Positions 10,738 to 42,847 of a stretch of 42,847 bases of DNA are shown one piece after another. The notes below the pieces were generated by a model that was not told where the DNA came from, made no database searches, and worked only from the letters and a program-made list of their open reading frames with translations. The translations under genes and the position numbers were made by a program. How positions within the stretch are numbered: position 1 is the first letter of the stretch; each line of letters begins with the position of its first letter. The stretch comes from a virus, in IMG/VR virus record IMGVR_UViG_3300022748_000008; one strand, written 5' to 3'.

Positions 10738-10772
10738 TACCCGAGTGGCTAACGCTGCTCGGGTATTTTTTT
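10738..10772 (+). terminator. Rho-independent terminator 2
   Basis: The stem TACCCGAG / CTCGGGTA has a 12-nt loop and is followed by seven T. Confidence 0.7.
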
Positions 10773-10791
10773 GAGGGTTTCAACCGCACGC

Positions 10792-12210
10792 ATGACAGAA
10801 GCCAGCGGGCTAGTCATTGAATACCGCGCCGTCGAGTCGCTGATTCCGTTTGCCAAAAACGCCCGGATGCATTCAGACGCGCAAATCGCGCAGATCGCCG
10901 CGAGTGTCAAGGAATGGGGCTGGACGAATCCGGTGCTCATCGATGGCGGCAACGGCATCATCGCCGGACATGGGCGAGTTCTTGCCGCACGTAAGCTCGG
11001 CATCGAGCAGGTGCCCTGCATCCAACTGGAAGGCATGAGCGAGGCGCAGAAACGTGCCTACATAATCGCCGACAACAAATTGGCGCTGAACGCCGGGTGG
11101 GATGAAGAATTGCTGGCGCTTGAGTTGGGCGACCTGCAGGCCGAGGGCTTCGACATTGACCTGATCGGCTTTTCGCAGGAAGAACTAGACGACTTGCTCA
11201 ACAGCGTTGGGGCCGAGGGCTTCGGCGATGGTGTGAGCCTGTCTGACCGCTTCCTGATACCGCCGTTTTCCGTGCTCAACGCCCGCGAAGGCTGGTGGCA
11301 AGACCGAAAGCGCGGCTGGATAGACATGGGGCTGCGCTCCGAGGTTGGGCGCGATGAAACGCTGACGTTCTCGGTATCGTCGCAACCGCCAGCCACCTAC
11401 CGCGCGAAAAACGAATACGAGGCCAAGGTGGGCCGCGAGGTCACATGGGCTGAGTTTGTCGAGGCCCGACCGGACGCAATCGTTCAGAAGGGCACCAGCA
11501 TCTTCGACCCCACGTTGTGCGAGGTTGCCTACCGTTGGTTTTGCCCGCCGAGTGGCTTGGTGCTTGACCCGTTTGCCGGTGGCAGCGTGCGTGGCATCGT
11601 CGCCGCCAAGTTGGGCCGCGAATACATCGGCGTTGACCTGCGCGATGAGCAGGTTGAGGCCAACCGGGTGCAAGCCGCGAGCCTGTGCCAAGAGATTCAG
11701 CCGGTATGGATTACCGGCGACTCACGCAACATCGACAAGCTGTGCAAGGGCACGCAGGCCGACTTCGTGTTTTCCTGCCCGCCGTATGCAGACCTTGAGG
11801 TCTACTCGGACGACCCGGCAGACCTTTCGACGTTGGACTACCCCGAATTTCGGGACGCCTACCTTCAGATCATCCACAAGACCTGCAGCCTGTTGAAGCC
11901 TGACCGCTTCGCCTGCTTTGTGGTGGGCGAGGTGAGAGACAAGCGCGGGGCGTATTACGATTTCATCGGCGACACCGTGCAGGCCTTCCGTGATGCCGGG
12001 TTGGACTACTACAACGAAGCCATCCTTGTGACGGTGGCAGGTAGCCTGCCAATCCGCGCAGGAAAGCAATTCAGCGCCAGCCGAAAGCTAGGCAAAACGC
12101 ATCAAAACATTCTCGTTTTCTGCAAGGGCGACCCGAAGAAGGCCGTCGAAGCGTGCGGGGACGTTGAGATTGATGAGGAATTATTCGCCGAAGCGGGCGA
12201 TGAGGGCTAG
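10792..12210 (+). CDS. ParB-like nuclease domain fused to a DNA methyltransferase
   Basis: The N-terminus (IPFAKNARMHSDAQIAQIAASVKEWGWTNPVLID..IIAGHGRVLAA) is ParB/Srx-like. The C-terminus has the AdoMet motif LDPFAGGSVRG and then the catalytic SCPPY. The track TTG start at 10771 lies in the terminator T-run, so the start was moved to ATG at 10792. Confidence 0.85.
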   Translation: MTEASGLVIEYRAVESLIPFAKNARMHSDAQIAQIAASVKEWGWTNPVLIDGGNGIIAGHGRVLAARKLGIEQVPCIQLEGMSEAQKRAYIIADNKLALNAGWDEELLALELGDLQAEGFDIDLIGFSQEELDDLLNSVGAEGFGDGVSLSDRFLIPPFSVLNAREGWWQDRKRGWIDMGLRSEVGRDETLTFSVSSQPPATYRAKNEYEAKVGREVTWAEFVEARPDAIVQKGTSIFDPTLCEVAYRWFCPPSGLVLDPFAGGSVRGIVAAKLGREYIGVDLRDEQVEANRVQAASLCQEIQPVWITGDSRNIDKLCKGTQADFVFSCPPYADLEVYSDDPADLSTLDYPEFRDAYLQIIHKTCSLLKPDRFACFVVGEVRDKRGAYYDFIGDTVQAFRDAGLDYYNEAILVTVAGSLPIRAGKQFSASRKLGKTHQNILVFCKGDPKKAVEACGDVEIDEELFAEAGDEG

Positions 12211-12405
12211 CCGACCGGCTTCCTTCAACGCCGCTAGGTCATGACCAAGCCCGAGCGACCAGCGCGGGTTGGTGTAAGCGGTGTGGGCGTCAAGAATGGC
12301 GCTGCGCTGCTCCCCAAGCTGAGGGAATCGCGCCGCAATGCGTATGGCGTCCTGCCAACGCTGTGAGGCCATGTGGTCTTTTACGACTGAGAGTTTTGTT
12401 CGCAT
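12181..12405 (-). CDS. Hypothetical protein (74 aa) on the opposite strand, convergent with the methyltransferase
   Basis: The ATG is preceded by an AAGGAAAA SD. Its 3' end overlaps the MTase 3' end by 30 nt. No recognisable motif. Confidence 0.5.
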   Translation of the reverse strand: MRTKLSVVKDHMASQRWQDAIRIAARFPQLGEQRSAILDAHTAYTNPRWSLGLGHDLAALKEAGRLALIARFGE

Positions 12406-12597
12406 GTGGTTTTCCTTGTTTTGGGCTTATGCGCATCTTGGTATGACTGCCGCATTGGTTCAAGTGAGAATCCCGATTTTCTTCACGGAAAACGACGAAA
12501 AGCGACAAACAAACATCAAGGCCAAGTAAGGATTGAACGGATTTCGATTCAGACTTGGTCGATTTTCAAAAAACCAACCCGATGAACGGAGGGCCAG

Positions 12598-13143
12598 ATG
12601 CCCGAAAAATCATGCGGGGCCAAGACACGCAGCGGTGAGCCTTGTAAGAAGGCACCCATGGAGGGGAAGAAACGCTGCAAGCTGCACGGGGGTGCAAGTA
12701 CCGGCCCAAAGAAACCAGCCGTAGGCAACAAGAACGCCGCGAAGCCGGGGAGCATCTACAGCCAATTTCTCACACCCGAAGAACAAGAGGCGTTTGACGC
12801 GCTTGAACTCGGACGCGTAGACGACGAGTTGCGTTTGATGCGCATCCGATTGGCGCGGGCTTTGAAGGCCGAGGAAGAGAGTGCCAACAAGCCCGAGCTT
12901 GATTCGGTCACTCAACGCCAAGGCGGTGGCCCGAGCACGGTCGCCAAAGAGGTAACACTCAAGCGCCGCGACTACACCAAGATCATTGATTCAGTAACGG
13001 CCCGCATCGAATCGCTTGAGCGCACACGCGCCGAGTTGGAGCGCAAGGGCGCTGACGATGATTTGGATGTAACGCCAGAATCCAAGACCTTCACGTACAA
13101 CGTGGTGGACGGCAGAAAGTCAGCAGATGCCGACGCTGACTAG
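12598..13143 (+). CDS. terS: Terminase small subunit candidate (HGGxSTG zinc-ribbon N-terminus)
   Basis: CGAKTRSGEPCKKAPMEGKKRCKLHGGASTGP is followed by a coiled coil. The gene lies immediately upstream of, and overlaps, terL. Confidence 0.6.
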   Translation: MPEKSCGAKTRSGEPCKKAPMEGKKRCKLHGGASTGPKKPAVGNKNAAKPGSIYSQFLTPEEQEAFDALELGRVDDELRLMRIRLARALKAEEESANKPELDSVTQRQGGGPSTVAKEVTLKRRDYTKIIDSVTARIESLERTRAELERKGADDDLDVTPESKTFTYNVVDGRKSADADAD

Positions 13144-14413
13144 ACCGCAGGCCCAATTCCTTCAACTGCCCCACAAGTTCCGCGCCTATGTAGGCGGGTT
13201 CGGCTCCGGCAAGACATGGGTGGGCAGCACTGCGATCTGCGAGCACTTGTGGGCACACCCGCGCATCAACCAAGGCTACTTCGCGCCGACTTATCCACAG
13301 ATTCGGGATATTTTTTACCCGACGATTGAGGAAGTCGCCGCAGGCATGGGCCTGCGCGTCAAGATCAACCAGTCGAACAAAGAGGTTCACTTCTTTGACG
13401 GCAACCGGTCGCGTGGCACGGTGATTTGCCGGTCGATGGACCATCCCGAGCAAATCGTGGGCTTCAAGATCGGCAATGCGCTGGTTGACGAGTTGGACGT
13501 GATGAAGCACGAGAAGGCGAAGCTTTCTTGGCGCAAGATCATTGCGCGTATGCGCTACAACGTGGACGGGCTGCGCAACGGCATCGACGTTGCAACGACT
13601 CCCGAGGGGTTCAAGTTCGTCTACGAGCAGTTTTATAAGCTGCCAAACGAAAAGCCCGACCTTCGCAAGATGTACGGCCTGATTCAGGCCAGCACCTACG
13701 AAAACGAGCGATTCCTTCCCGCTGACTACATTCCGTCGCTGCTGGCTTCATACCCGCCGCAACTGATTGACGCGTACCTCAACGGGGAATTCGTCAACCT
13801 GACAAGCGGCGCGGTTTACCCCGAGTTTTCACGGGCGCTGAACCACACCGACGCTGAGTTGCAACACGGCGAGCCTGTGCATGTGGGCGTTGACTTCAAC
13901 GTCTACAACTGCACGGCAATGGTCGGCGTGATTCGTGACAACAAGCCCGTGATCGTGGCTGAGTTGACCGGAATGCGTGACACGCCAGACATGGCGAAGA
14001 AGCTGGTTGACCGCTACAAGTCGCAAGGCCACCACGTCACGGTCTACCCCGATGCAAGCGGGCAAGGGCACAAGTCGGTTAACGCCGCTTTGTCTGACCT
14101 GCAAATCATGAAGGATGCCGGACTTACAATCTGCGCGAATAGCACCAACCCTGCTGTGAAAGACCGCGTGGCGGCGGTTAATGCCGCTGTCCTGAACGCC
14201 AAAGGTGTTCGCAGTCTGTTGGTGAACACGCGCAACTGTCCTGTTTTGACGGAGTGCTTAGAACAGCAGGTCTATGACCAAAACGGCGACCCTGACAAGA
14301 CCGCCGGTAAAGATCACGCGCCAGATGCGCTTGGGTATTTCGTGCATTTCCGCTGGCCTATCGTGAGGCCTGTCGCAACGCATGGCACACAAATCATTCA
14401 CATGGCTCGATAA
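13127..14413 (+). CDS. terL: Terminase large subunit
   Basis: It has Walker A GGFGSGKT and Walker B ALVDELD, a C-terminal nuclease-like region, and the expected size and position. Confidence 0.9.
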   Translation: MPTLTRPQAQFLQLPHKFRAYVGGFGSGKTWVGSTAICEHLWAHPRINQGYFAPTYPQIRDIFYPTIEEVAAGMGLRVKINQSNKEVHFFDGNRSRGTVICRSMDHPEQIVGFKIGNALVDELDVMKHEKAKLSWRKIIARMRYNVDGLRNGIDVATTPEGFKFVYEQFYKLPNEKPDLRKMYGLIQASTYENERFLPADYIPSLLASYPPQLIDAYLNGEFVNLTSGAVYPEFSRALNHTDAELQHGEPVHVGVDFNVYNCTAMVGVIRDNKPVIVAELTGMRDTPDMAKKLVDRYKSQGHHVTVYPDASGQGHKSVNAALSDLQIMKDAGLTICANSTNPAVKDRVAAVNAAVLNAKGVRSLLVNTRNCPVLTECLEQQVYDQNGDPDKTAGKDHAPDALGYFVHFRWPIVRPVATHGTQIIHMAR

Positions 14414-15853
14414 ATGTTTAAGACGCTGCAAACCACCTTTCCGAAGGATAAAGACCTGCCGGAGCGCACGTACCGGCTGTCAATCCTGACGCGGGTATTG
14501 CGCGGCGAGATTTACGACAACCTGCCGTATGCATTTCACGACGAAAAAAGTCCGGCAGGCGAATACATCCCGCTTCGCGAGCGCCGCCCGTCCGTACGCT
14601 ACGGCCTGTGCAAGCTCGTGGTGGATGACTCCGTGTCTCTTCTGTTCTCAGAAGGCCATTTCCCAGACGTTGACGCCGACGAAAAAGTGCGTGAAGCGCT
14701 GCAACGGCTGATCAAAGAAACCAAGCTCAACGAGTTGATGGTGGACGCCGCCACGCGCGGTAGCGTTGGCTCAGTGGCTATTCTGTTCCGTGTGCTCGAT
14801 GGGCGCGTGTTCTTCGATGCGATGGACACCGCGTACCTGACGCCCACATGGAAGGACAAGGCCCCCGACACGCTAGAGAGCGTGACCGAGCAATACAAGG
14901 TCAAGGGTTCCACCCTGAAAGCCTTGGGCTATGCGGTGGACAACGACAACACCGAGTATTGGTTTCGCCGCGTCTGGGATGAGAACTCGGAAACGTGGTT
15001 CTTGCCTTGGAAGGTCAACGACGAGCAGGCTGTGCCAGCCATTGATACGCCGCGCACCGTCAACCACGCGCTCGGTTTCGTACCCGTTGTGTGGGTCAAG
15101 AACCTGCCAGGTGGCGACGCTATCGACGGCGCTTGCACGTTCCCCAACGAGGCGGTTGATACCAGCATCGAGATTGACTATCAGCTTTCGCAAGCCGGTC
15201 GCGGTCTGAAATACTCGGCTGACCCCACGCTGTTGATCAAAGAACCCGCGTTCTCTGACGGCACCATGGTGCGCTCTGCCTCCAACGCCATCAAGGTAAG
15301 TGCCGAGGGTGACGCCAAGTTGCTCGAAATCAACGGCACCGCAATCGAAGCGGTCATGGAATACGTGACCAAGCTGCGCGAGTTGGCTTTGGAAACCATG
15401 CATGGCAACCGCGCCAACGCTGACAAGATCAGCGCGGCGCAATCCGGTCGCGCGATGGAGTTGATGAACCAGTCACTCGTGTGGCTCGCGGACAAGCTGC
15501 GCATCAGCTACGGCGAAGGCGCGTTGCGTCAACTGCTGATGATGGTCATCAAGGCCTCGGACAAGTTGCCCTTGACCTACAAGGACGGAACCAAGGTCGG
15601 CAAATTTGAATCGAGCACGCAAATCGCCTTGCGCTGGCCTGCTTGGTACCAACCCACGGCATCAGATAAGCAACAGACAGCGACTACACTGCGCATCTTG
15701 ATCGATGCCGGTGTCATCAGTCGTCAGACGGCTTTGAAGGTGATCGCCGCCGACTACGACATTGAAGATGTTGAGGCCGAGGCTGCGTTGGCTGCTGCCG
15801 AACTGGTGGCGCGTGAAGCCGACGCGCAGAAGAAGATCAACATTCAGGAGTAA
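14414..15853 (+). CDS. Portal protein
   Basis: A 479-aa ORF lies directly after terL and before the scaffold and capsid genes. The call is positional and size-based. Confidence 0.7.
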   Translation: MFKTLQTTFPKDKDLPERTYRLSILTRVLRGEIYDNLPYAFHDEKSPAGEYIPLRERRPSVRYGLCKLVVDDSVSLLFSEGHFPDVDADEKVREALQRLIKETKLNELMVDAATRGSVGSVAILFRVLDGRVFFDAMDTAYLTPTWKDKAPDTLESVTEQYKVKGSTLKALGYAVDNDNTEYWFRRVWDENSETWFLPWKVNDEQAVPAIDTPRTVNHALGFVPVVWVKNLPGGDAIDGACTFPNEAVDTSIEIDYQLSQAGRGLKYSADPTLLIKEPAFSDGTMVRSASNAIKVSAEGDAKLLEINGTAIEAVMEYVTKLRELALETMHGNRANADKISAAQSGRAMELMNQSLVWLADKLRISYGEGALRQLLMMVIKASDKLPLTYKDGTKVGKFESSTQIALRWPAWYQPTASDKQQTATTLRILIDAGVISRQTALKVIAADYDIEDVEAEAALAAAELVAREADAQKKINIQE

Positions 15854-15856
15854 TTG

Positions 15857-16366
15857 ATGAAAAAGCTGTTTTTCTTACTGGCCTTCTGTCAGTCGGTTTT
15901 TGCTGCGTCGTTCAGTGTCGATGCCAGTGGCTGCGATGTGCATTTTTCCCCAAAAGGCGGCGCTACTGAGGCTGTGGTGCAGATTGTGGACGGCACTAAG
16001 TCAAGCGTCCACGTTTTGGCCTATGGCTTCACCAGTCAGCCGATTACCGATGCACTGATTCGCGCACATGCTCGCGGTGCCGAAGTGCTGGTGGTTCTTG
16101 ACCGCAGCAATAAAACAGCACCATCGAGCAAGATGCCAGACCTGATTAAGGCAGGCATTCCAGTATGGATTGATGCAACCCATGCCATTGCACACAACAA
16201 AGTGATGATTGTGGATGGTGCATTGATTGAGAACGGCTCGTTCAATTACACAAATTCTGCTGAAAATAGCAACGGCGAAAACGCGCTTGTTTGCCACAGC
16301 ACACAAGGTGCCGCGATTTACGAAGCTGATTTTCAAAGGCACAAATCGCATAGCGTAAAACAATGA
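15857..16366 (+). CDS. nuc: Secreted PLD-superfamily endonuclease (Nuc family) with Sec signal peptide
   Basis: The signal peptide is MKKLFFLLAFCQSVFAAS. The HKD motif AHNKVMIVD is followed by GSFNYTNSAENSNGENALV, collinear with pKM101 Nuc (HDKVIIVD...GSFNFTKAAETKNSENAVV). An AGGAG SD is present, and G+C is about 44% by hand count over 16141-16260. Confidence 0.9.
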   Translation: MKKLFFLLAFCQSVFAASFSVDASGCDVHFSPKGGATEAVVQIVDGTKSSVHVLAYGFTSQPITDALIRAHARGAEVLVVLDRSNKTAPSSKMPDLIKAGIPVWIDATHAIAHNKVMIVDGALIENGSFNYTNSAENSNGENALVCHSTQGAAIYEADFQRHKSHSVKQ

Positions 16367-16398
16367 TTTCCCCCCGGCTTGATGCCGGAACACAACCG

Positions 16399-16421
16399 AC
16401 AGGCTTGATGCCTGTTTTTTT
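16399..16421 (+). terminator. Rho-independent terminator after nuc
   Basis: The stem ACAGGC / GCCTGT has loop TTGAT and is followed by seven T. A sister hairpin CCGGC-TTGAT-GCCGG lies at 16374-16388. Confidence 0.7.
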
Positions 16422-16436
16422 CCATGAGAGGGCCAG

Positions 16437-17009
16437 ATGCCTAGATTTCTAAAAATGTTCCCCCTGCAAAACGCGAACGATGACGGTTCCGGTGGTGGCG
16501 GCGGTGGTGGTGGTAATCCACCCCCCAAGCCCCCCGAGCCAGAAGTGTTTTCGCGTGAATACGTGAAGGAATTGCGCCACGAGTCGGCGAACTACCGCAC
16601 CAAAGCGCAGGAGGCCGAGCGCAAGGCTCAGGAAGCCGAAGACCGCGCGAAGAAAGCCGCCGAAGAATCCGAATCCAAAGTCAAGGAAGCGACCACAGCA
16701 GCAGAGGCACGAATCATTCGCGCCGAACTGAAAGCCGCCGCCTTGAAAGCGGGCATGGTTGACTTGGACGGCTTAAAACTAGCCGATTTGTCCAACGTGA
16801 AGTTGAACGAAGCCGGTGAAGTCGAAGGCGCTGACGCTCTCATGGAAGAATTGAAAAAGGCCAAGCCTTACCTTTTTGGTACGGCTAACACAAGCCACTC
16901 TGGTAGTACACCGCCGAAAGACCCTCCATCGACCAAGAAGGCGACGGAAATGTCTAAGGAAGAGTACGCCAAAGCGAAAGCCGAAGCCTTAAAAAAGGCT
17001 GGTCGCTAA
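16437..17009 (+). CDS. Scaffolding protein
   Basis: FSREYVKELRHESANYRTKAQEAERKAQEAEDRAKK is followed by a charged helical protein, lying between portal and capsid. It contains a Gly8 run. Confidence 0.7.
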   Translation: MPRFLKMFPLQNANDDGSGGGGGGGGNPPPKPPEPEVFSREYVKELRHESANYRTKAQEAERKAQEAEDRAKKAAEESESKVKEATTAAEARIIRAELKAAALKAGMVDLDGLKLADLSNVKLNEAGEVEGADALMEELKKAKPYLFGTANTSHSGSTPPKDPPSTKKATEMSKEEYAKAKAEALKKAGR

Positions 17010-17086
17010 ACACAACCGTAAACCATCGGGAGCAGGCCTCCACGGGTAAGTGAAAATCGAATCTTTATTTTTTGGAGGTATCCCAA

Positions 17087-18394
17087 ATGGGTATTCAAGC
17101 TTTTCCGGCCTCGTTGCAGGCCATCATCCAACAGAACTTCTTGGAGCGCGAGTTTCAAGAGGGCATCCAGTCGCGTTTGGGCTTCCGCGCCATCGCTGAC
17201 CGCGAAGTGTTCCCCGCTGCAATCGGTGAAACGCTGACCAAGACCCGCCGTGGCTTGAAGGCTCCCGTCACTACGCCGCTGAACCCTTCGACCAACACCA
17301 ACCTAGACAACGGCATGACCCCCTCGGGTTGGACTGTTGAACAGTACACGCTGGCGGTCAATATGTACGGCGACACCATCGACCTGAACATGGTGACTTC
17401 GCGTGTGGGTATTGCATCGCAATTCCTGCAAAACGCCAAAGTCAATGGTGTCCAATCTATCCAGTCGCTGGACCGCTTGGCCCGCAATGCGCTCTACGGT
17501 GCTTATTTGGGTGGTAACACTCGCGTGACGGCCACCTTGGGCGCACCTGCAACGACTATCGCTGTTGATGACATTCGCGGCTTCCAATACGTCACCAGCA
17601 ACGGCGTGATGGTTCCTGTGTCGGTTTCCAACACAATGACCTTGGTCGTTGGCGCTGGCACCTACACGTTGACTGGAGCAACCGCTGATGGCACCAACGT
17701 GTCAACCGCACCAAACGGCGTGTCCGGCACATTGACCTTCTCAGCCAACGTGTCTGTGGCAAACGGCACAACCGGCAACGCTGTGGTGGCTTCCGTAGCT
17801 CCTTACGTCATTCGTCCGAATGCACGCGCGACTACTGCAGCCTTGCAGTCCACCGATACGCTGACCATGCAAGACGTTTTGTCTGCTGTTGCAACGCTTC
17901 GCAGCAACAACGTGCCTGACGTGAACGGTGCATACAACTGCTACTTGGACGACCGCCAGTTGCTCGGATTGTTCAAAGATGGCGACTTCAAGTTGCTGTA
18001 TCGCGGCGCTTACGGCTCCGAAGAATACAAGCAAGGTCAAGTCTTTGAATTGCTCGGCGCACGCTTCATCACTACGACCGAAGCGCCTCAGCAGACATTG
18101 AGTGGCGTTGCCGTTCACCGCGCCGTGGTGTGCGGTCAGGGTGCCATCGTTGAAGGCAACTATGCTGAGACTGGCTACGAGGATGTGGACAATCCCGACA
18201 GCTTGAAGGTGATGGTCGATGACATTTGCATGGTCACTCGTGAACCGCTTGACCGCTTGCAACAAATCATCGCTCAGTCTTGGTACTGGATTGGTGGCTA
18301 CGCAGTGCCAACCGATATCACTGCCAACACCAGCATCATCCCGACCGCAAGCAACGCTTACTTCAAGCGTGGCGTGGTGATCGAATCGGCATAA
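17087..18394 (+). CDS. Major capsid protein
   Basis: A 435-aa ORF follows the scaffold gene, with a GGAGG SD and a strong hairpin directly downstream. The call is positional. Confidence 0.7.
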   Translation: MGIQAFPASLQAIIQQNFLEREFQEGIQSRLGFRAIADREVFPAAIGETLTKTRRGLKAPVTTPLNPSTNTNLDNGMTPSGWTVEQYTLAVNMYGDTIDLNMVTSRVGIASQFLQNAKVNGVQSIQSLDRLARNALYGAYLGGNTRVTATLGAPATTIAVDDIRGFQYVTSNGVMVPVSVSNTMTLVVGAGTYTLTGATADGTNVSTAPNGVSGTLTFSANVSVANGTTGNAVVASVAPYVIRPNARATTAALQSTDTLTMQDVLSAVATLRSNNVPDVNGAYNCYLDDRQLLGLFKDGDFKLLYRGAYGSEEYKQGQVFELLGARFITTTEAPQQTLSGVAVHRAVVCGQGAIVEGNYAETGYEDVDNPDSLKVMVDDICMVTREPLDRLQQIIAQSWYWIGGYAVPTDITANTSIIPTASNAYFKRGVVIESA

Positions 18395-18419
18395 GCCGGT
18401 TTGGTGTTGTAACCAACAA

Positions 18420-18445
18420 GGGGCCGCTTTCGGGCGGCTCCTTTT
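18420..18445 (+). terminator. Hairpin/attenuator after the capsid gene
   Basis: The stem GGGGCCGC / GCGGCTCC (one G-U pair) has a 6-nt loop and is followed by TTTTCATTT. Confidence 0.5.
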
Positions 18446-18463
18446 CATTTCCTTGGAGTAAAC

Positions 18464-18769
18464 ATGGCAGACGAAAACACACAAAACCCAGAATTGACAG
18501 CCGAAGAAAAGGCCGCAGCGAAAGCCGCTGAAAAAGAGGCCGCGAAAGCTGCGAAAGAGGCTGAAAAGGCCGCAGCGAAAGCCGCCAAAGATGCCGACAA
18601 GGTTGAATTGCCAGAATCTGTGACGCTCGCCCGTCCCTACGGCTACATCAACGAAGAAGAAGGCACCAGCCACGCTTGGGCCGCTGAACAAGTCGTGAAA
18701 GACCCCGAGCAAATCGCAGACCTGATGGCTCGCAAAGCCCCTCTCGTTGGCGTTACCTACGACGAGTAA
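18464..18769 (+). CDS. Hypothetical head-associated protein (101 aa), AEKAAAK-repeat N-terminus
   Basis: The ORF has an SD (GGAG) and a low-complexity Ala/Lys/Glu region. Confidence 0.6.
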   Translation: MADENTQNPELTAEEKAAAKAAEKEAAKAAKEAEKAAAKAAKDADKVELPESVTLARPYGYINEEEGTSHAWAAEQVVKDPEQIADLMARKAPLVGVTYDE

Positions 18770-18772
18770 AGC

Positions 18773-19360
18773 ATGAAGCAGTACCGATTTATTGCAGCCT
18801 TCGCGCTGCTCATGGCCTGCGTCGGCGCATTCGCTGCACCGATGCAAGTGAACACCGAAGGCGTGCGGGCAACGTACAGCTATGTCGCTGCCGATTACGC
18901 ACCGGCTGCTGGCGCTACCGATGTGGTTGTCTTGACCGGCTCATCGAGCAAGGTCATTCGCATCAATCGGATTCAGATCACCGCCGATTCGACCGCGCCT
19001 AGCGTGATCGACTTGTATGTGTTCAAACGCTCTGCTGCGAACACAGGCGGCACGTCGACCAATCCCTATGCTGTCAAGCATGACAGCGCGAATACAACCG
19101 CCTCTGGCGTTGTCACGCTGTATTCGGCAAACCCGAGCGCATTGGGCGCGGGCTGGCTGATTCGCGCCGATCACTACGCGCTACCGGCTGCGTCATCGAC
19201 CGGCTACCCCGGCGCACCGTGGTTTGAGGACTTCGGCGTGCGAAATGATCAGCCCATCATTCTGCGCAATGCCAACGAGAGCATTGCAATTAGCTTGAAC
19301 GGGCAGACCCTGCCAGCAGGGTTGAATCTCTACATCACGATTAGTTGGACTGAGGAATAA
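18773..19360 (+). CDS. Hypothetical protein with predicted Sec signal peptide (195 aa)
   Basis: The N-terminus MKQYRFIAAFALLMACVGAFAAP has a positive n-region, a hydrophobic core and an AFA-A cleavage-like site. The remainder looks beta-rich. Confidence 0.6.
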   Translation: MKQYRFIAAFALLMACVGAFAAPMQVNTEGVRATYSYVAADYAPAAGATDVVVLTGSSSKVIRINRIQITADSTAPSVIDLYVFKRSAANTGGTSTNPYAVKHDSANTTASGVVTLYSANPSALGAGWLIRADHYALPAASSTGYPGAPWFEDFGVRNDQPIILRNANESIAISLNGQTLPAGLNLYITISWTEE

Positions 19361-19363
19361 GTC

Positions 19364-19747
19364 ATGGCGCTGACCGCACAAGAAAAAACGGACGTTCGCC
19401 GCTACTGCGGATTTCCGCTGTTCGGCGGTCAGCCCGTGCAAGCTTTCGGACACCGCTTTTACCAGTGGTACGGCACGCTTGAATTCCGCATGAACAACAT
19501 GCAGGACAGCGAAGAAACCGTGGTGCGAAGCTACCTCACCAACCTGAGTGCATTGGAAGCCGCGGTGCCCACGGCGAGCGCAAACCTCGACACCGACCAA
19601 GCGGCGGTGTGGACGCACAACAAACGCGAAGTCGCCGACCGCATGGCCTTGTACGCCACTTGGCGTATTGAGTTGTGTCGGTTCTTCGGTGTGCCACCCG
19701 GCCCCGGATTGCGTGGCGCAGGCCCGAACATGGAATTGGTGGTGTAA
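19364..19747 (+). CDS. Hypothetical virion/head-tail protein (127 aa)
   Basis: It is a tightly packed ORF in the late operon. Confidence 0.6.
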   Translation: MALTAQEKTDVRRYCGFPLFGGQPVQAFGHRFYQWYGTLEFRMNNMQDSEETVVRSYLTNLSALEAAVPTASANLDTDQAAVWTHNKREVADRMALYATWRIELCRFFGVPPGPGLRGAGPNMELVV

Positions 19748-35160: not shown

Positions 35161-35388
35161 ATGGATTGGCTTTTGCATCTTCTCACCGGCAAAGACAACA
35201 AGACTCAGGACATTGGACGCTGGCTTGCCGCGCTGATTGGCACGTCTGGCATCTTCTTCCAAGGCTGGTCTGTGATCGTGCATCACGCCGCCTTCTCGAT
35301 GCAGGAATTTGGCATTGGCGCTGGCGCTCTCGCGGCTGGCGTTGGTGCCATGTTGAAACTCAAAGCTGATACGGAACCCACGCCATGA
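35161..35388 (+). CDS. Putative holin (75 aa, 2 TM)
   Basis: MDWLLHLLTGKDNKTQDIGRWLAALIGTSGIFFQGWSVIV...GIGAGALAAGVGAML. It overlaps the endolysin start (ATGA). Confidence 0.55.
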   Translation: MDWLLHLLTGKDNKTQDIGRWLAALIGTSGIFFQGWSVIVHHAAFSMQEFGIGAGALAAGVGAMLKLKADTEPTP

Positions 35389-36047
35389 ACAGTGAGCAAT
35401 TGGCCCAAGCGTTGAAGATAACGCCAGCCAAAGCAGAGGAATGGCTTGCGCCATTGCAAGAGGCATTTGATCGCTTCGACATTAACACCGTTGCACGTCA
35501 ATCGGCATTCATTGGTCAGTGTGCACATGAGTCGGTCAATTTCACCGCGCTTGCTGAGAACCTAAACTACAGCGCAGATGGCTTGGCGAACACATGGCCC
35601 GCACGCTTTGCTATCAAAGGCGCTGACGGCAAGCCTGTCAAGAACGAAAAGGGGCGATACAGCCCCGACGAACATGCTTGCGCCATCGAGCGCCAACCTG
35701 AAAAAATCGCAAATAGCGTCTATGGCGGGCGCATGGGTAACGGCCCTGAGGAATCTGGCGACGGGTGGAAATACTACGGGCGCGGCCTGATTCAATTGAC
35801 TGGCAAGGTCAATTACCAAGCTGCATCCGACGCCTTGGGCGTGGACTTTGTGAGCAGTCCCGAGTTGGTATCAAGCCCGCGCTATGCGGCTTTGACGGCT
35901 GGTTGGTTTTGGAATATGCACGGCCTCAACGAGCTGGCAGACGCCCGCGACAACACCACCATCACAAAGCGCATCCAAGGCGGCTCGCTTGGTCTTGATG
36001 ACCGCTTGGCGAAGACAGACGCCACTTTTTCGGTGCTTTCAGCATGA
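35385..36047 (+). CDS. Endolysin, glycoside hydrolase family 19 (chitinase-like)
   Basis: AFIGQCAHESVNFTALAENLNYS...YGGRMGNGPEESGDGWKYYGRGLIQLTGKVNY...WFWN matches GH19 catalytic motifs. Confidence 0.9.
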   Translation: MNSEQLAQALKITPAKAEEWLAPLQEAFDRFDINTVARQSAFIGQCAHESVNFTALAENLNYSADGLANTWPARFAIKGADGKPVKNEKGRYSPDEHACAIERQPEKIANSVYGGRMGNGPEESGDGWKYYGRGLIQLTGKVNYQAASDALGVDFVSSPELVSSPRYAALTAGWFWNMHGLNELADARDNTTITKRIQGGSLGLDDRLAKTDATFSVLSA

Positions 36048-36529
36048 AGTTTCTTGAACCGTATTTGACCTATATCAAGATGGCTGCGATTGCCGCCGCC
36101 ATCGTGTTTGCCGCTTGGTTTGGGCGGCACTACACGGTGATGCAGTACGAGGAAGACATTGCCGAGCAGAACAGGCAGATTGCCGACCTAAAGACCCATC
36201 AAGCCGAGGAAACGGTGAAGGTGGTCACAAAGTACGTTGACCGCGTGCGCGTGGTGCGCAATCAAAGCCAGAAAATAGCCTCGGAGGTATCAACCAATGT
36301 CCCGCCTACTGCTGACGCTCTGTGCGTCATTCCTGCTGGCTTCGTGCGCGTCCACAACGAAGCTGCAACCGGTGTGCCCGATGCCACCGGAAATCTTGAT
36401 GAGGCCACCAGCGGAGTTGCGCTCTCTACCGTCGCCTCAACCGTTGCCGACAACTACGGCACCTGTCACGAAACCGCAGAGCAACTGAAAGCGTTGCAGG
36501 ACTGGATACGGTCCACCCATCCCCAGTGA
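36044..36529 (+). CDS. i-spanin (Rz-like)
   Basis: It has an N-terminal TM (AAIAAAIVFAAWF), a coiled coil, and follows the endolysin gene. Confidence 0.8.
   Translation: MKFLEPYLTYIKMAAIAAAIVFAAWFGRHYTVMQYEEDIAEQNRQIADLKTHQAEETVKVVTKYVDRVRVVRNQSQKIASEVSTNVPPTADALCVIPAGFVRVHNEAATGVPDATGNLDEATSGVALSTVASTVADNYGTCHETAEQLKALQDWIRSTHPQ
36297..36488 (+). CDS. o-spanin lipoprotein (Rz1-like), embedded in the +1 frame of Rz
   Basis: It has a lipobox (LLASC), a Pro-rich mature part, and lies entirely within 36044..36529. Confidence 0.8.
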   Translation: MSRLLLTLCASFLLASCASTTKLQPVCPMPPEILMRPPAELRSLPSPQPLPTTTAPVTKPQSN

Positions 36530-37287: not shown

Positions 37288-38313
37288 ATGGCGTCAATCC
37301 TGAAAGTGAAGGGCCTGTGGCGTGCGCAGGTCCGTAAGGCGGGTCATGCTAGCACAGCACAGTCATTTCCTACTCGGGCCGAGGCGCTGAAATGGGCGCG
37401 AAAGGTTGAGGCCGATTTCGACAAGGGAAAGCCCCTCAAACCGTCCGAAGTCACCGTGTCGGACATGATTGCCCACTATCGGCAAGCGCGGGAAAAGTCA
37501 GGCCGTCCGATCAATCCGAAGTCCAACGAGCATTACATGCTCAACAACCTGGCTGCAGCCTTCCCCGGCGAAAAGGTCGCCACCCTCAAATCGCAGCGCA
37601 TCGTGGCCTACGCTCAGGCCCGCCGAAAATCCGGTGTCGGCGGCTACACGGTCAACATGGAGATTTCCAAGCTCGGTACCGTCATCCGGCATACGTCAAG
37701 CCTGCTCGATCTTGACCTACCGGATTGCATCGGCAAGGCGAGGCCTCTGCTGCATCACCTGCACCTCATTGGGCAGGGTGGGGAGAGGGACAGACGCCCA
37801 ACGGCTGACGAAATCGGGCGTTTGTTCGCGTGGTTCGCCGCCAACCCACAATACGGCCTGCCCATGGTCGATGTGGTCAAGGTCGCCATGCAATGCGCCC
37901 TGCGGCGCGGCGAGGTATTCCGCATCCTGTGGTCAGATTTGGACATTGAAAAGCGGCTGATCTTGGTGCGCGACCGCAAAGACCCGCGCCGTAAGGTCGG
38001 CAACCATGAGCTTGTGCCTTTGGTGGGCGATTCGCTCGACGTGATCATGCGCCAGCGGCGTGTAGATGTACGAATCTTCCCCCATGAACCCGGTACCGCG
38101 TCCAAGTATTTCAAGTGGGCTTGTGACGCCTGCGGCATTAAGGATTTGCGGCTGCACGACCTGCGCCACGAGGCGACGAGTGCGCTGTTTGAGGCCGGTT
38201 GGAACGTGCCCGAGGTCGCCGTGGTGACGGGCCACAAGGATTGGCGCAACCTCAAACGGTACACCAACCTTGACCCGGCAAAGGTCGCCAAGAAGGGGCA
38301 GAATGCAGGGTAA
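37288..38313 (+). CDS. int: Tyrosine integrase
   Basis: The catalytic region is ALRRGEV...HDLRHEATSALFEAGWNVPEVAVVTGHKDWRNLKRYTNL (R, HxxR, H, Y). Confidence 0.92.
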   Translation: MASILKVKGLWRAQVRKAGHASTAQSFPTRAEALKWARKVEADFDKGKPLKPSEVTVSDMIAHYRQAREKSGRPINPKSNEHYMLNNLAAAFPGEKVATLKSQRIVAYAQARRKSGVGGYTVNMEISKLGTVIRHTSSLLDLDLPDCIGKARPLLHHLHLIGQGGERDRRPTADEIGRLFAWFAANPQYGLPMVDVVKVAMQCALRRGEVFRILWSDLDIEKRLILVRDRKDPRRKVGNHELVPLVGDSLDVIMRQRRVDVRIFPHEPGTASKYFKWACDACGIKDLRLHDLRHEATSALFEAGWNVPEVAVVTGHKDWRNLKRYTNLDPAKVAKKGQNAG

Positions 38314-42616: not shown

Positions 42617-42847
42617 GCTTGTTCTCCTGTCGCTTTGGCGATGGCGGCGCGGGCTTCACGAACTGCTTTCCAGCCGGTGACTAACCCCTCACACATCGGG
42701 CAAGTCTCTGCCATGTGGTTGCACCCGAAAGTTTTTGGCTTCTCATCGTGGTCGGTGGAATGGCTGTGGAAGCGGTCTACCATTCCTTGCAGAGCATCCA
42801 ACAGCTCAGGCGCTGCGGCGATCAGGTTGACGTTGTTGGCACCAAAA
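42613..42847 (-). CDS. C-terminal part of the junction-spanning 115-aa ORF (see 1..240)
   Basis: The frame is open to the window end. It contains CNHMAETCPMCEG. The track start at 42801 is a TTG internal to the longer ORF. Confidence 0.6.
   Translation of the reverse strand, partial: FGANNVNLIAAAPELLDALQGMVDRFHSHSTDHDEKPKTFGCNHMAETCPMCEGLVTGWKAVREARAAIAKATGEQA
42721..42847. repeat. Terminal direct repeat, copy 2 (identical to 1..127)
   Basis: Same as copy 1. Confidence 0.95.

Follow-up and report, generated by a model that had tools for sequence, protein, structure and literature searches.

The endonuclease Nuc of the IncN plasmid pKM101 (PDB 1BYR/1BYS), a protein of about 150-170 amino acids (aa) with an N-terminal signal peptide and a single HKD domain of the phospholipase D (PLD) superfamily, is one that we take to be periplasmic, as Pohlman et al. 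reportedly found in 1993. Exported DNases are also borne by prophages of Streptococcus, where their genes usually lie at the lysis end of the prophage; these enzymes belong to a different, metal-dependent family, are made in Gram-positive hosts from their own regulated promoters, and have a documented role in virulence, namely escape from neutrophil DNA traps. Those of Streptococcus pyogenes (Spd, Sda1 and Spd-3) are secreted non-specific DNases encoded by accessory genes of temperate phages (PMC3629212), and are functional analogues of the protein considered here. NucT of Helicobacter pylori (PDB 6EHI) is an exported single-HKD PLD nuclease, which carries an additional basic loop and acts preferentially on single-stranded substrates (PMC5714352). 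Here we analyse nuc, a gene of the virus recorded as IMGVR_UViG_3300022748_000008 in IMG/VR, whose entire stretch of 42,847 nucleotides (nt) was analysed and is called the window below. The gene occupies positions 15857 to 16366 on the + strand and encodes a 169-aa pre-protein that sequence and fold assign to the single-HKD endonucleases of the Nuc family. Whereas the gene for pKM101 Nuc is carried by a conjugative plasmid, that of the window is a cargo gene inserted in the late packaging and head operon of a phage. A literature search returned no specific description of a phage-borne exported PLD nuclease or of its role.

In order to place the nuc product among PLD proteins, we compared it with known sequences and structures. 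A phmmer search of the PDB sequences returned pKM101 Nuc (1byr_A) as the closest solved structure (E 9.7e-25, residues 27-148), followed by Zucchini/MitoPLD and NucT, the latter with weak sequence similarity (E 1e-3). An AlphaFold2 model based on an alignment of 40 homologues reached a pLDDT of 92.6, and a Foldseek search of the PDB with this model again placed 1byr first (E 3e-16, TM 0.81/0.90, rmsd 1.5 Å over 147 columns, 34% identity in the fold alignment), then NucT (TM 0.76) and then Zucchini. Pfam identified one domain, PLDc_2 (E 1.4e-22, residues 42-162 of 169), and assigned the protein to the PLD family only; no homology to the streptococcal DNases is therefore indicated. The catalytic motif, encoded at 16193..16246 (+), is H113-x-K115-x4-D120-x6-G127-S128-x-N130. 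Indeed, residues 113-130 (H-N-K-VMIV-D-GALIEN-G-S-F-N) correspond exactly, as in Nuc, to HxK(x)4D(x)6GSxN, the signature defining the PLD superfamily (PMC5714352). H113, K115, D120, G127, S128, N130 and E141 are invariant across two alignments of 33 and 40 homologues. The single-HKD architecture fits the Nuc type of about 150-180 aa, in which a homodimer builds the active site. All the features of the Nuc family that sequence can address are thus present, and nuc encodes an intact single-HKD endonuclease of this family, with a predicted Sec signal peptide and a predicted nuclease activity. The family is already catalogued among phage proteins: the nuc product matches phrog_12711 over its full length (E 2e-35, residues 6-162), an entry that is itself unannotated and of unknown function.

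Two other PLD assignments were tried and rejected. The defence proteins DISARM DrmC, DpdK and MkoB/C share a PLD-type nuclease domain with the nuc product and match it weakly, but they are intracellular, whereas the nuc product has a signal peptide. Scores were low (best PADLOC match DrmC, E 7.5e-11, 40 bits; NCBIfam DrmC, 38 bits against a cut-off of 133), and the neighbouring genes encode portal and scaffold, with no partner genes of these systems. The NucT equivalogs of NCBIfam gave at best 44 bits, against cut-offs of 211 or more.

The N-terminus of the pre-protein carries a predicted Sec-type signal peptide (residues 1-16, MKKLFFLLAFCQSVFA, encoded at 15857..15904, +), with a basic n-region (MKK), a hydrophobic core and a V-x-A site. 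According to the -3/-1 rule, signal peptidase I is predicted to cut between A16 and A17 (VFA/AS), and this site aligns with the AxA sites of homologues (SASA/Q, AMA/D, AFA/D and others). When an extension of at least 15 aa containing a strongly hydrophobic 10-residue stretch was taken as signal-peptide-like, 113 of 121 homologues showed such an N-terminus with an AxA-type site. A lipoprotein was rejected since there is no lipobox, Phe precedes Cys11, and Cys11 is not conserved. The sequence-only reading of this DNA had described a 169-aa protein collinear with Nuc, bearing an HKD motif and a classic Sec signal peptide, and had called for structure prediction; the sequence and fold matches to 1byr, the model and the signal-peptide-like N-termini of the homologues all support this description.

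The mature protein shares two cysteines, Cys26 (codon at 15932..15934, +) and Cys146 (codon at 16292..16294, +), with its closest clade of homologues. Among 210 sequences, 40 have both residues, 168 have neither and only 2 have a single one, which suggests from sequence that they form a disulfide, as would fit folding outside the cytoplasm. This co-occurring pair, absent from more distant homologues, distinguishes the clade from pKM101 Nuc. Three members of the clade (P0016, P0019 and P0024, 245-258 aa) are longer at the N-terminus, where about 85 additional residues form a hydrophobic region before a signal-peptidase-like site (AHA/EP); this region might represent a fused domain, holin-like or serving as an anchor, or else an artefact of gene calling.

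The nuc gene belongs to a tightly packed late operon, terS-terL-portal-nuc. This operon starts with the gene of the small terminase subunit (12598..13143, +; phrog_1889, E 7e-15), whose 3' end overlaps the start of that of the large subunit (13127..14413, +; Pfam Terminase_6N, E 7e-33, and Terminase_6C). The portal gene follows (14414..15853, +; Pfam SPP1_portal, E 8e-11; phrog_145 and phrog_64), and its TAA stop codon at 15851-15853 is separated from the nuc ATG by 3 nt. Downstream of nuc lie the genes of the scaffolding protein (16437..17009, +; Pfam Phage_scaffold, E 4e-14) and of the major capsid protein (17072..18394, +; phrog_1357, E 4.5e-48), the latter 63% identical to the capsid protein of Ralstonia phage Raharianne. 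The list of open reading frames (ORFs) starts nuc at TTG 15854, in the same frame as ATG 15857. The Shine-Dalgarno sequence AGGAG, located within the final portal codons (CAG GAG TAA; 15846..15850, +), is 6 nt away from the ATG and only 3 nt away from the TTG, and ATG 15857 is therefore the likely start. Scanning positions 12000-19500 revealed no sigma-70-like promoter. Lacking a promoter, nuc would be expressed together with the late packaging genes. On all these points, namely portal and scaffold as flanking genes, a Shine-Dalgarno sequence for nuc and no separate promoter region, our data agree with the sequence-only reading.

To determine whether nuc is a regular component of this head module, we surveyed 116 loci whose portal is 45-71% identical to that of the window, on 80 viral contigs and 36 genomes, mostly from Burkholderiales and other Betaproteobacteria. 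None of the 116 has nuc at the portal-scaffold junction. The nearest cultured relatives by capsid protein, Ralstonia phage Raharianne and Komagataeibacter phage phiKX1 (62-63% identity), have the scaffold gene directly after the portal gene, and nuc is absent from their entire records. Megablast of positions 13000-19000 against 50,697 phage records found no close DNA relative. The composition of the gene also sets it apart. Its GC content is 0.494, against 0.565 for the window, and only 3% of 510-nt windows are as low; its GC3 is 0.512, against 0.66-0.74 for terL, portal and capsid genes, the scaffold gene being itself lower (0.586). In eleven other phages carrying a member of the clade, the GC content of nuc tracks that of its flanks. 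The mismatch seen here thus points to a recent arrival from a donor of lower GC. The exact scaffold protein of this phage was found on 8 contigs, all 8 of which also encode the exact nuc protein, so that no nuc-less variant was found among them. We conclude that nuc is a recently acquired cargo gene between portal and scaffold. This is the accessory insertion that had been proposed together with the survey of relatives just described. The foreign composition had been argued from hand counts: that of 53 G+C in 120 nt of nuc is exact, while the last 60 nt of portal hold 34 G+C and not 38. By presence/absence and composition nuc fits the moron concept, but it does not by a promoter and terminator of its own.

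We then considered where the homologues of nuc are found. The nearest ones are metagenomic proteins, 51-62% identical. In PLSDB, homologues occur on more than 5000 plasmid records, the nearest being at most 46% identical, while only 4 of 50,697 GenBank phage records contain a detectable homologue (Ralstonia jumbo phage RsoM2USA, two Wolbachia WO records and one faecal contig). Scanning viral contigs with a single-protein query yielded 2 nuc loci, and an alignment-based query yielded 80. The cysteine-pair clade, made up of these nearest homologues, looks phage-borne: its members have so far been seen only on metagenomic contigs, which are phage-like wherever their neighbours can be classified.

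The members of this clade occur in 14 distinct gene contexts, this window included. In 5 of the 14, nuc comes directly after an endolysin gene, with at most one small ORF between, whereas by a rough estimate chance would place a given gene there about 3% of the time when the genome has about 60 genes. The endolysins belong to three unrelated families, GH108 (L004), GH19 (L006 and L016) and phage lysozyme (L007 and L096), and in L004 an Rz-like spanin gene lies two genes downstream of nuc, which places nuc inside the lysis cassette. In 4 of the 14 contexts nuc adjoins a portal gene: besides this window, these are three other, unrelated phages, L004, L097, where the order is P22-type portal, a 332-aa gene, nuc and capsid, and L018, where a Mu-F-like head gene follows nuc. 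The remaining contexts show small unknown ORFs, and in L015 nuc adjoins a thymidylate synthase gene.

On this basis we propose, with moderate confidence, that the nuc product is a late-expressed, non-specific nuclease that would be sequestered in the periplasm, released at lysis, and would then digest unprotected DNA. Clearance of DNA after lysis is the best-supported role because members of the clade recurrently adjoin endolysins. In such a mechanism, nuc would be translated as the last cistron of the late operon, and the pre-protein would be exported by Sec and cut after VFA. To our knowledge, all PLD-family enzymes fold as homodimers; the nuc product would do so in the periplasm, probably stabilized by the Cys26-Cys146 disulfide. 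Export would separate the non-specific nuclease from phage DNA during replication and packaging. Once holin, endolysin and spanin have destroyed the envelope, the enzyme would mix with the lysate and digest the DNA that no capsid protects, i.e. the host chromosome, unpackaged concatemers and extracellular DNA of the matrix. The resulting decrease in viscosity and trapping would allow progeny to disperse. Before lysis, DNA reaching the periplasm may be degraded as well. More speculatively, the whole cysteine-pair clade might represent an unrecognized accessory of Gram-negative phage lysis, a 'lysate DNase' stored in the periplasm, freed by the holin-endolysin-spanin pathway so that progeny escape the host DNA, and moving between phages as a bare ORF into junctions of late operons, the portal-scaffold slot of this phage being one example; this extension is possible, and we advance it only tentatively.

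Several observations weigh against a lysis-linked function. In this phage, nuc is about 19 kb away from the lysis genes, an endolysin gene at 35385..36047 (+; phrog_181, E 1e-79) and a spanin-like gene at 36044..36529 (+; phrog_4952, with weak matches to Rz-like spanins). The link to lysis genes holds for the closest clade only: in the wider viral set of 77 loci, neighbours are heterogeneous, and of 148 upstream ORFs scanned (two per locus), only 7 match endolysin families. The cysteine pair may perhaps have been inherited by the clade as a single trait. The pI of the mature protein is 6.2, not the basic value that a strongly DNA-binding surface might lead one to expect. Finally, the last cistron of a packaging operon may perhaps be expressed only at low, portal-like levels.

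The sequence-only reading had offered three roles: destruction of incoming DNA in the periplasm, degradation of extracellular or biofilm DNA to free progeny, and nucleotide scavenging. The neighbourhoods of the closest homologues favour the lysis-linked role. Scavenging is the least likely of the three. The main rival is a periplasmic barrier that would destroy superinfecting phage, conjugative or transforming DNA and protect the infected cell or the lysogen. A classical parallel is the degradation of DNA from superinfecting T4 by the periplasmic endonuclease I. The signal peptide and the predicted periplasmic destination match those of pKM101 Nuc, and homologues of the nuc product are very common on conjugative plasmids, as the PLSDB records show; in addition, this phage is temperate, as judged from its integrase, and cargo genes of temperate phages often serve exclusion. 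However, a gene embedded in a late packaging operon with no promoter-like site is improbably expressed in a lysogen, and exclusion would be of little benefit late in infection. Moreover, injected phage DNA is not normally free in the periplasm, and the neighbourhoods of nuc elsewhere are late, lysis or head modules and not immunity regions, save for five Peptidase_S24 neighbours among the 148 upstream ORFs of the wide set. We therefore consider such a barrier unlikely, although it is the alternative to which we give most weight.

The proximity to endolysins could also be explained if the enzyme hydrolysed envelope phospholipids instead of DNA, thus helping endolysin and spanin against the Gram-negative envelope. 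The PLD superfamily does include phospholipases, Zucchini/MitoPLD chains have been deposited as 'cardiolipin hydrolase', and lipases are found as cargo at the same junction in relatives. But by sequence and fold the protein best matches Nuc and NucT, two proven nucleases, followed by Zucchini, itself a nuclease (PMC5714352), and its compact build with a single HKD domain is the one seen in the nuclease subgroup. The lipases of the relatives are not analogous either, as they lack signal peptides and have fibre-like N-termini. A lipid substrate is thus improbable. Even less probable is that the enzyme degrades extracellular or periplasmic nucleic acids to feed phage DNA synthesis. NucT has been implicated in purine salvage (PMC5714352), and in addition to the clade member of L015 adjoining a thymidylate synthase gene, that of L096 is located near ThyX, RNR and MazG genes. 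These genes of L096 are, however, on the opposite strand; co-transcription with packaging genes would bring the nuc product after most DNA synthesis, and the host chromosome is out of reach of an exported enzyme until lysis. The location of nuc within a head module, shared by the homologues of L097 and L018 that also lie among head genes, might rather indicate a structural or head-assembly protein, or an inert passenger in this phage. We give this very little credence, since the predicted cleavable signal peptide would direct the protein away from capsid assembly, the 116 relatives have the same head genes with no nuc at the junction, the catalytic residues are all intact and the identical protein is present on 8 contigs.

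The position of nuc was further examined by comparing the portal-scaffold junctions of the relatives (L098-L213), which correspond to 15854-16373 of the window. The distance from portal stop to scaffold start is at most 151 nt in 49 of 99 relatives and 290-3100 nt in the other 50. The cargo of the longer junctions is varied. Two families whose function is unknown account for 19 and 14 loci, and other examples are a lipase of the GDSL type, one of class 3, an exonuclease, a collagen-like protein, and a DNA methyltransferase together with a Mu-F-like protein. The junction is thus a recurrent slot for varied cargo in this lineage. It had been remarked that nuc sits where no head-morphogenesis gene is expected; the insertion is real, but its position is less odd than this remark implies, as about half of the relatives hold other cargo there and as nuc homologues adjoin portal genes in L004, L097 and L018. 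A separate observation concerns a 195-aa ORF of the head module (18773-19360, +), which has no Pfam or PHROG match and shows a signal-peptide-like N-terminus (MKQYRFIAAFALLMACVGAFA/AP). Its homologues are found at the same place in L098 (62% identity) and in the cargo slot of L197 (31% identity). Judging from its N-terminus, this ORF may be a second exported protein encoded among head genes.

The nuc ORF ends about 7 nt before the first of two hairpins that precede the scaffold gene. Hairpin 1 (CCGGC-TTGAT-GCCGG) is at 16374..16388 (+). Hairpin 2 (GACAGGC-TTGAT-GCCTGTT), retrieved by a terminator scan, is the terminator-like part of the element (16398..16421, +): its stem-loop covers 16398-16416 and its 3' arm merges into a run of seven T at 16415-16421. 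Both hairpins contain the exact 11-nt repeat GGCTTGATGCC, and no further exact copy was found in the window. Allowing one mismatch raises the total to 7 matches (5 inexact), where shuffles predict 1.2. A third copy of the motif GGCnnGATGCC, at 16431-16442, spans the start codon of the scaffold gene.

This element is not specific to phages carrying nuc. The closest relative, L098, whose portal is 71% identical and which lacks nuc, carries this element too, between portal stop and scaffold ATG (L098:5466-5540), with two hairpins, a run of seven T and then ...GGAGGGCTAGATGCCT. Of 82 dereplicated relatives, 35 show a hairpin followed by a T-rich tail immediately before the scaffold start, whether or not they bear cargo, and where cargo is present it is upstream of the element. 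The layout comprises two hairpins with loops of the form YNGATG, a T-run after the second, and then a ribosome-binding site. In L157, L162, L164, L170, L173, L174 and L176, the start codon lies inside the loop of a third hairpin (CGGGCnGATGCCCG). RNAalifold found no consensus structure in the intergenic element, probably because loop lengths shift the register of the alignment, and pairs were then counted for one named structure. In the alignment of the 35 elements, each of the 11 stem pairs shows compensatory changes; the paired fraction of cells is 72%, against 60% for shuffles, and the observed covariation was reached by none of 500 shuffles. The double hairpin with its T-run is thus a conserved element of the phage backbone and does not belong to nuc. 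The two hairpins with TTGAT loops and the T-run had been noted before, as features of nuc itself; they do exist, but they are shared with L098 and other relatives without nuc. Since they are also found in such relatives, nuc must have been inserted as an almost bare ORF. In phage P22, the expression of scaffold is autoregulated. By analogy, the intergenic element may act both as a terminator or attenuator and as a translational operator of the scaffold gene.

The window begins and ends with an identical 127-nt direct repeat (1-127 and 42721-42847). Such a terminal repeat is the usual mark of a k-mer overlap and indicates a circular assembly, with a true genome of about 42,720 bp. An integrase gene is located at 37288..38313 (+; phrog_1, E 9e-39). 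Together with the lysis genes, the circular assembly and the integrase indicate a complete temperate phage genome, and the relatives of this phage are mostly prophages of Burkholderiales and other Betaproteobacteria. Two further features were observed. Just upstream of the packaging genes, 10771-12210 (+) encodes a 479-aa fusion of a ParB-like N-terminal domain and an N6/N4 DNA methyltransferase (phrog_498, E 2e-140). After the capsid gene, 18464-18769 (+) is a 101-aa ORF rich in Ala, Lys and Glu, which may encode a decoration or scaffold-like protein; 23-nt direct repeats at 18506-18585 encode repeats of the EKAAAKAA type, and a weaker copy (74% identical) is present in the scaffold gene at 16962-16984.

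As a clear homologue of a well-characterized family, nuc is a useful annotation and not a surprise, and its function is probably a fairly ordinary accessory one. The new points are modest: a cysteine-pair clade that looks phage-borne, the association of this clade with lysis genes, and a cargo slot upstream of a conserved hairpin element. The junction is a hot spot of cargo insertion in a mostly betaproteobacterial phage lineage, and it lends itself to studies of moron acquisition and of the control of scaffold expression. For biotechnology, the clade would be a source of small secreted nucleases that are metal-independent. Should the lysis-linked reading hold, some Gram-negative phages possess an enzyme devoted to escape from the viscous DNA of the lysed host or of the biofilm. 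Escape from host DNA, a step that is usually ignored, would then bear on the spread of phages in biofilms and on the design of phage therapy.

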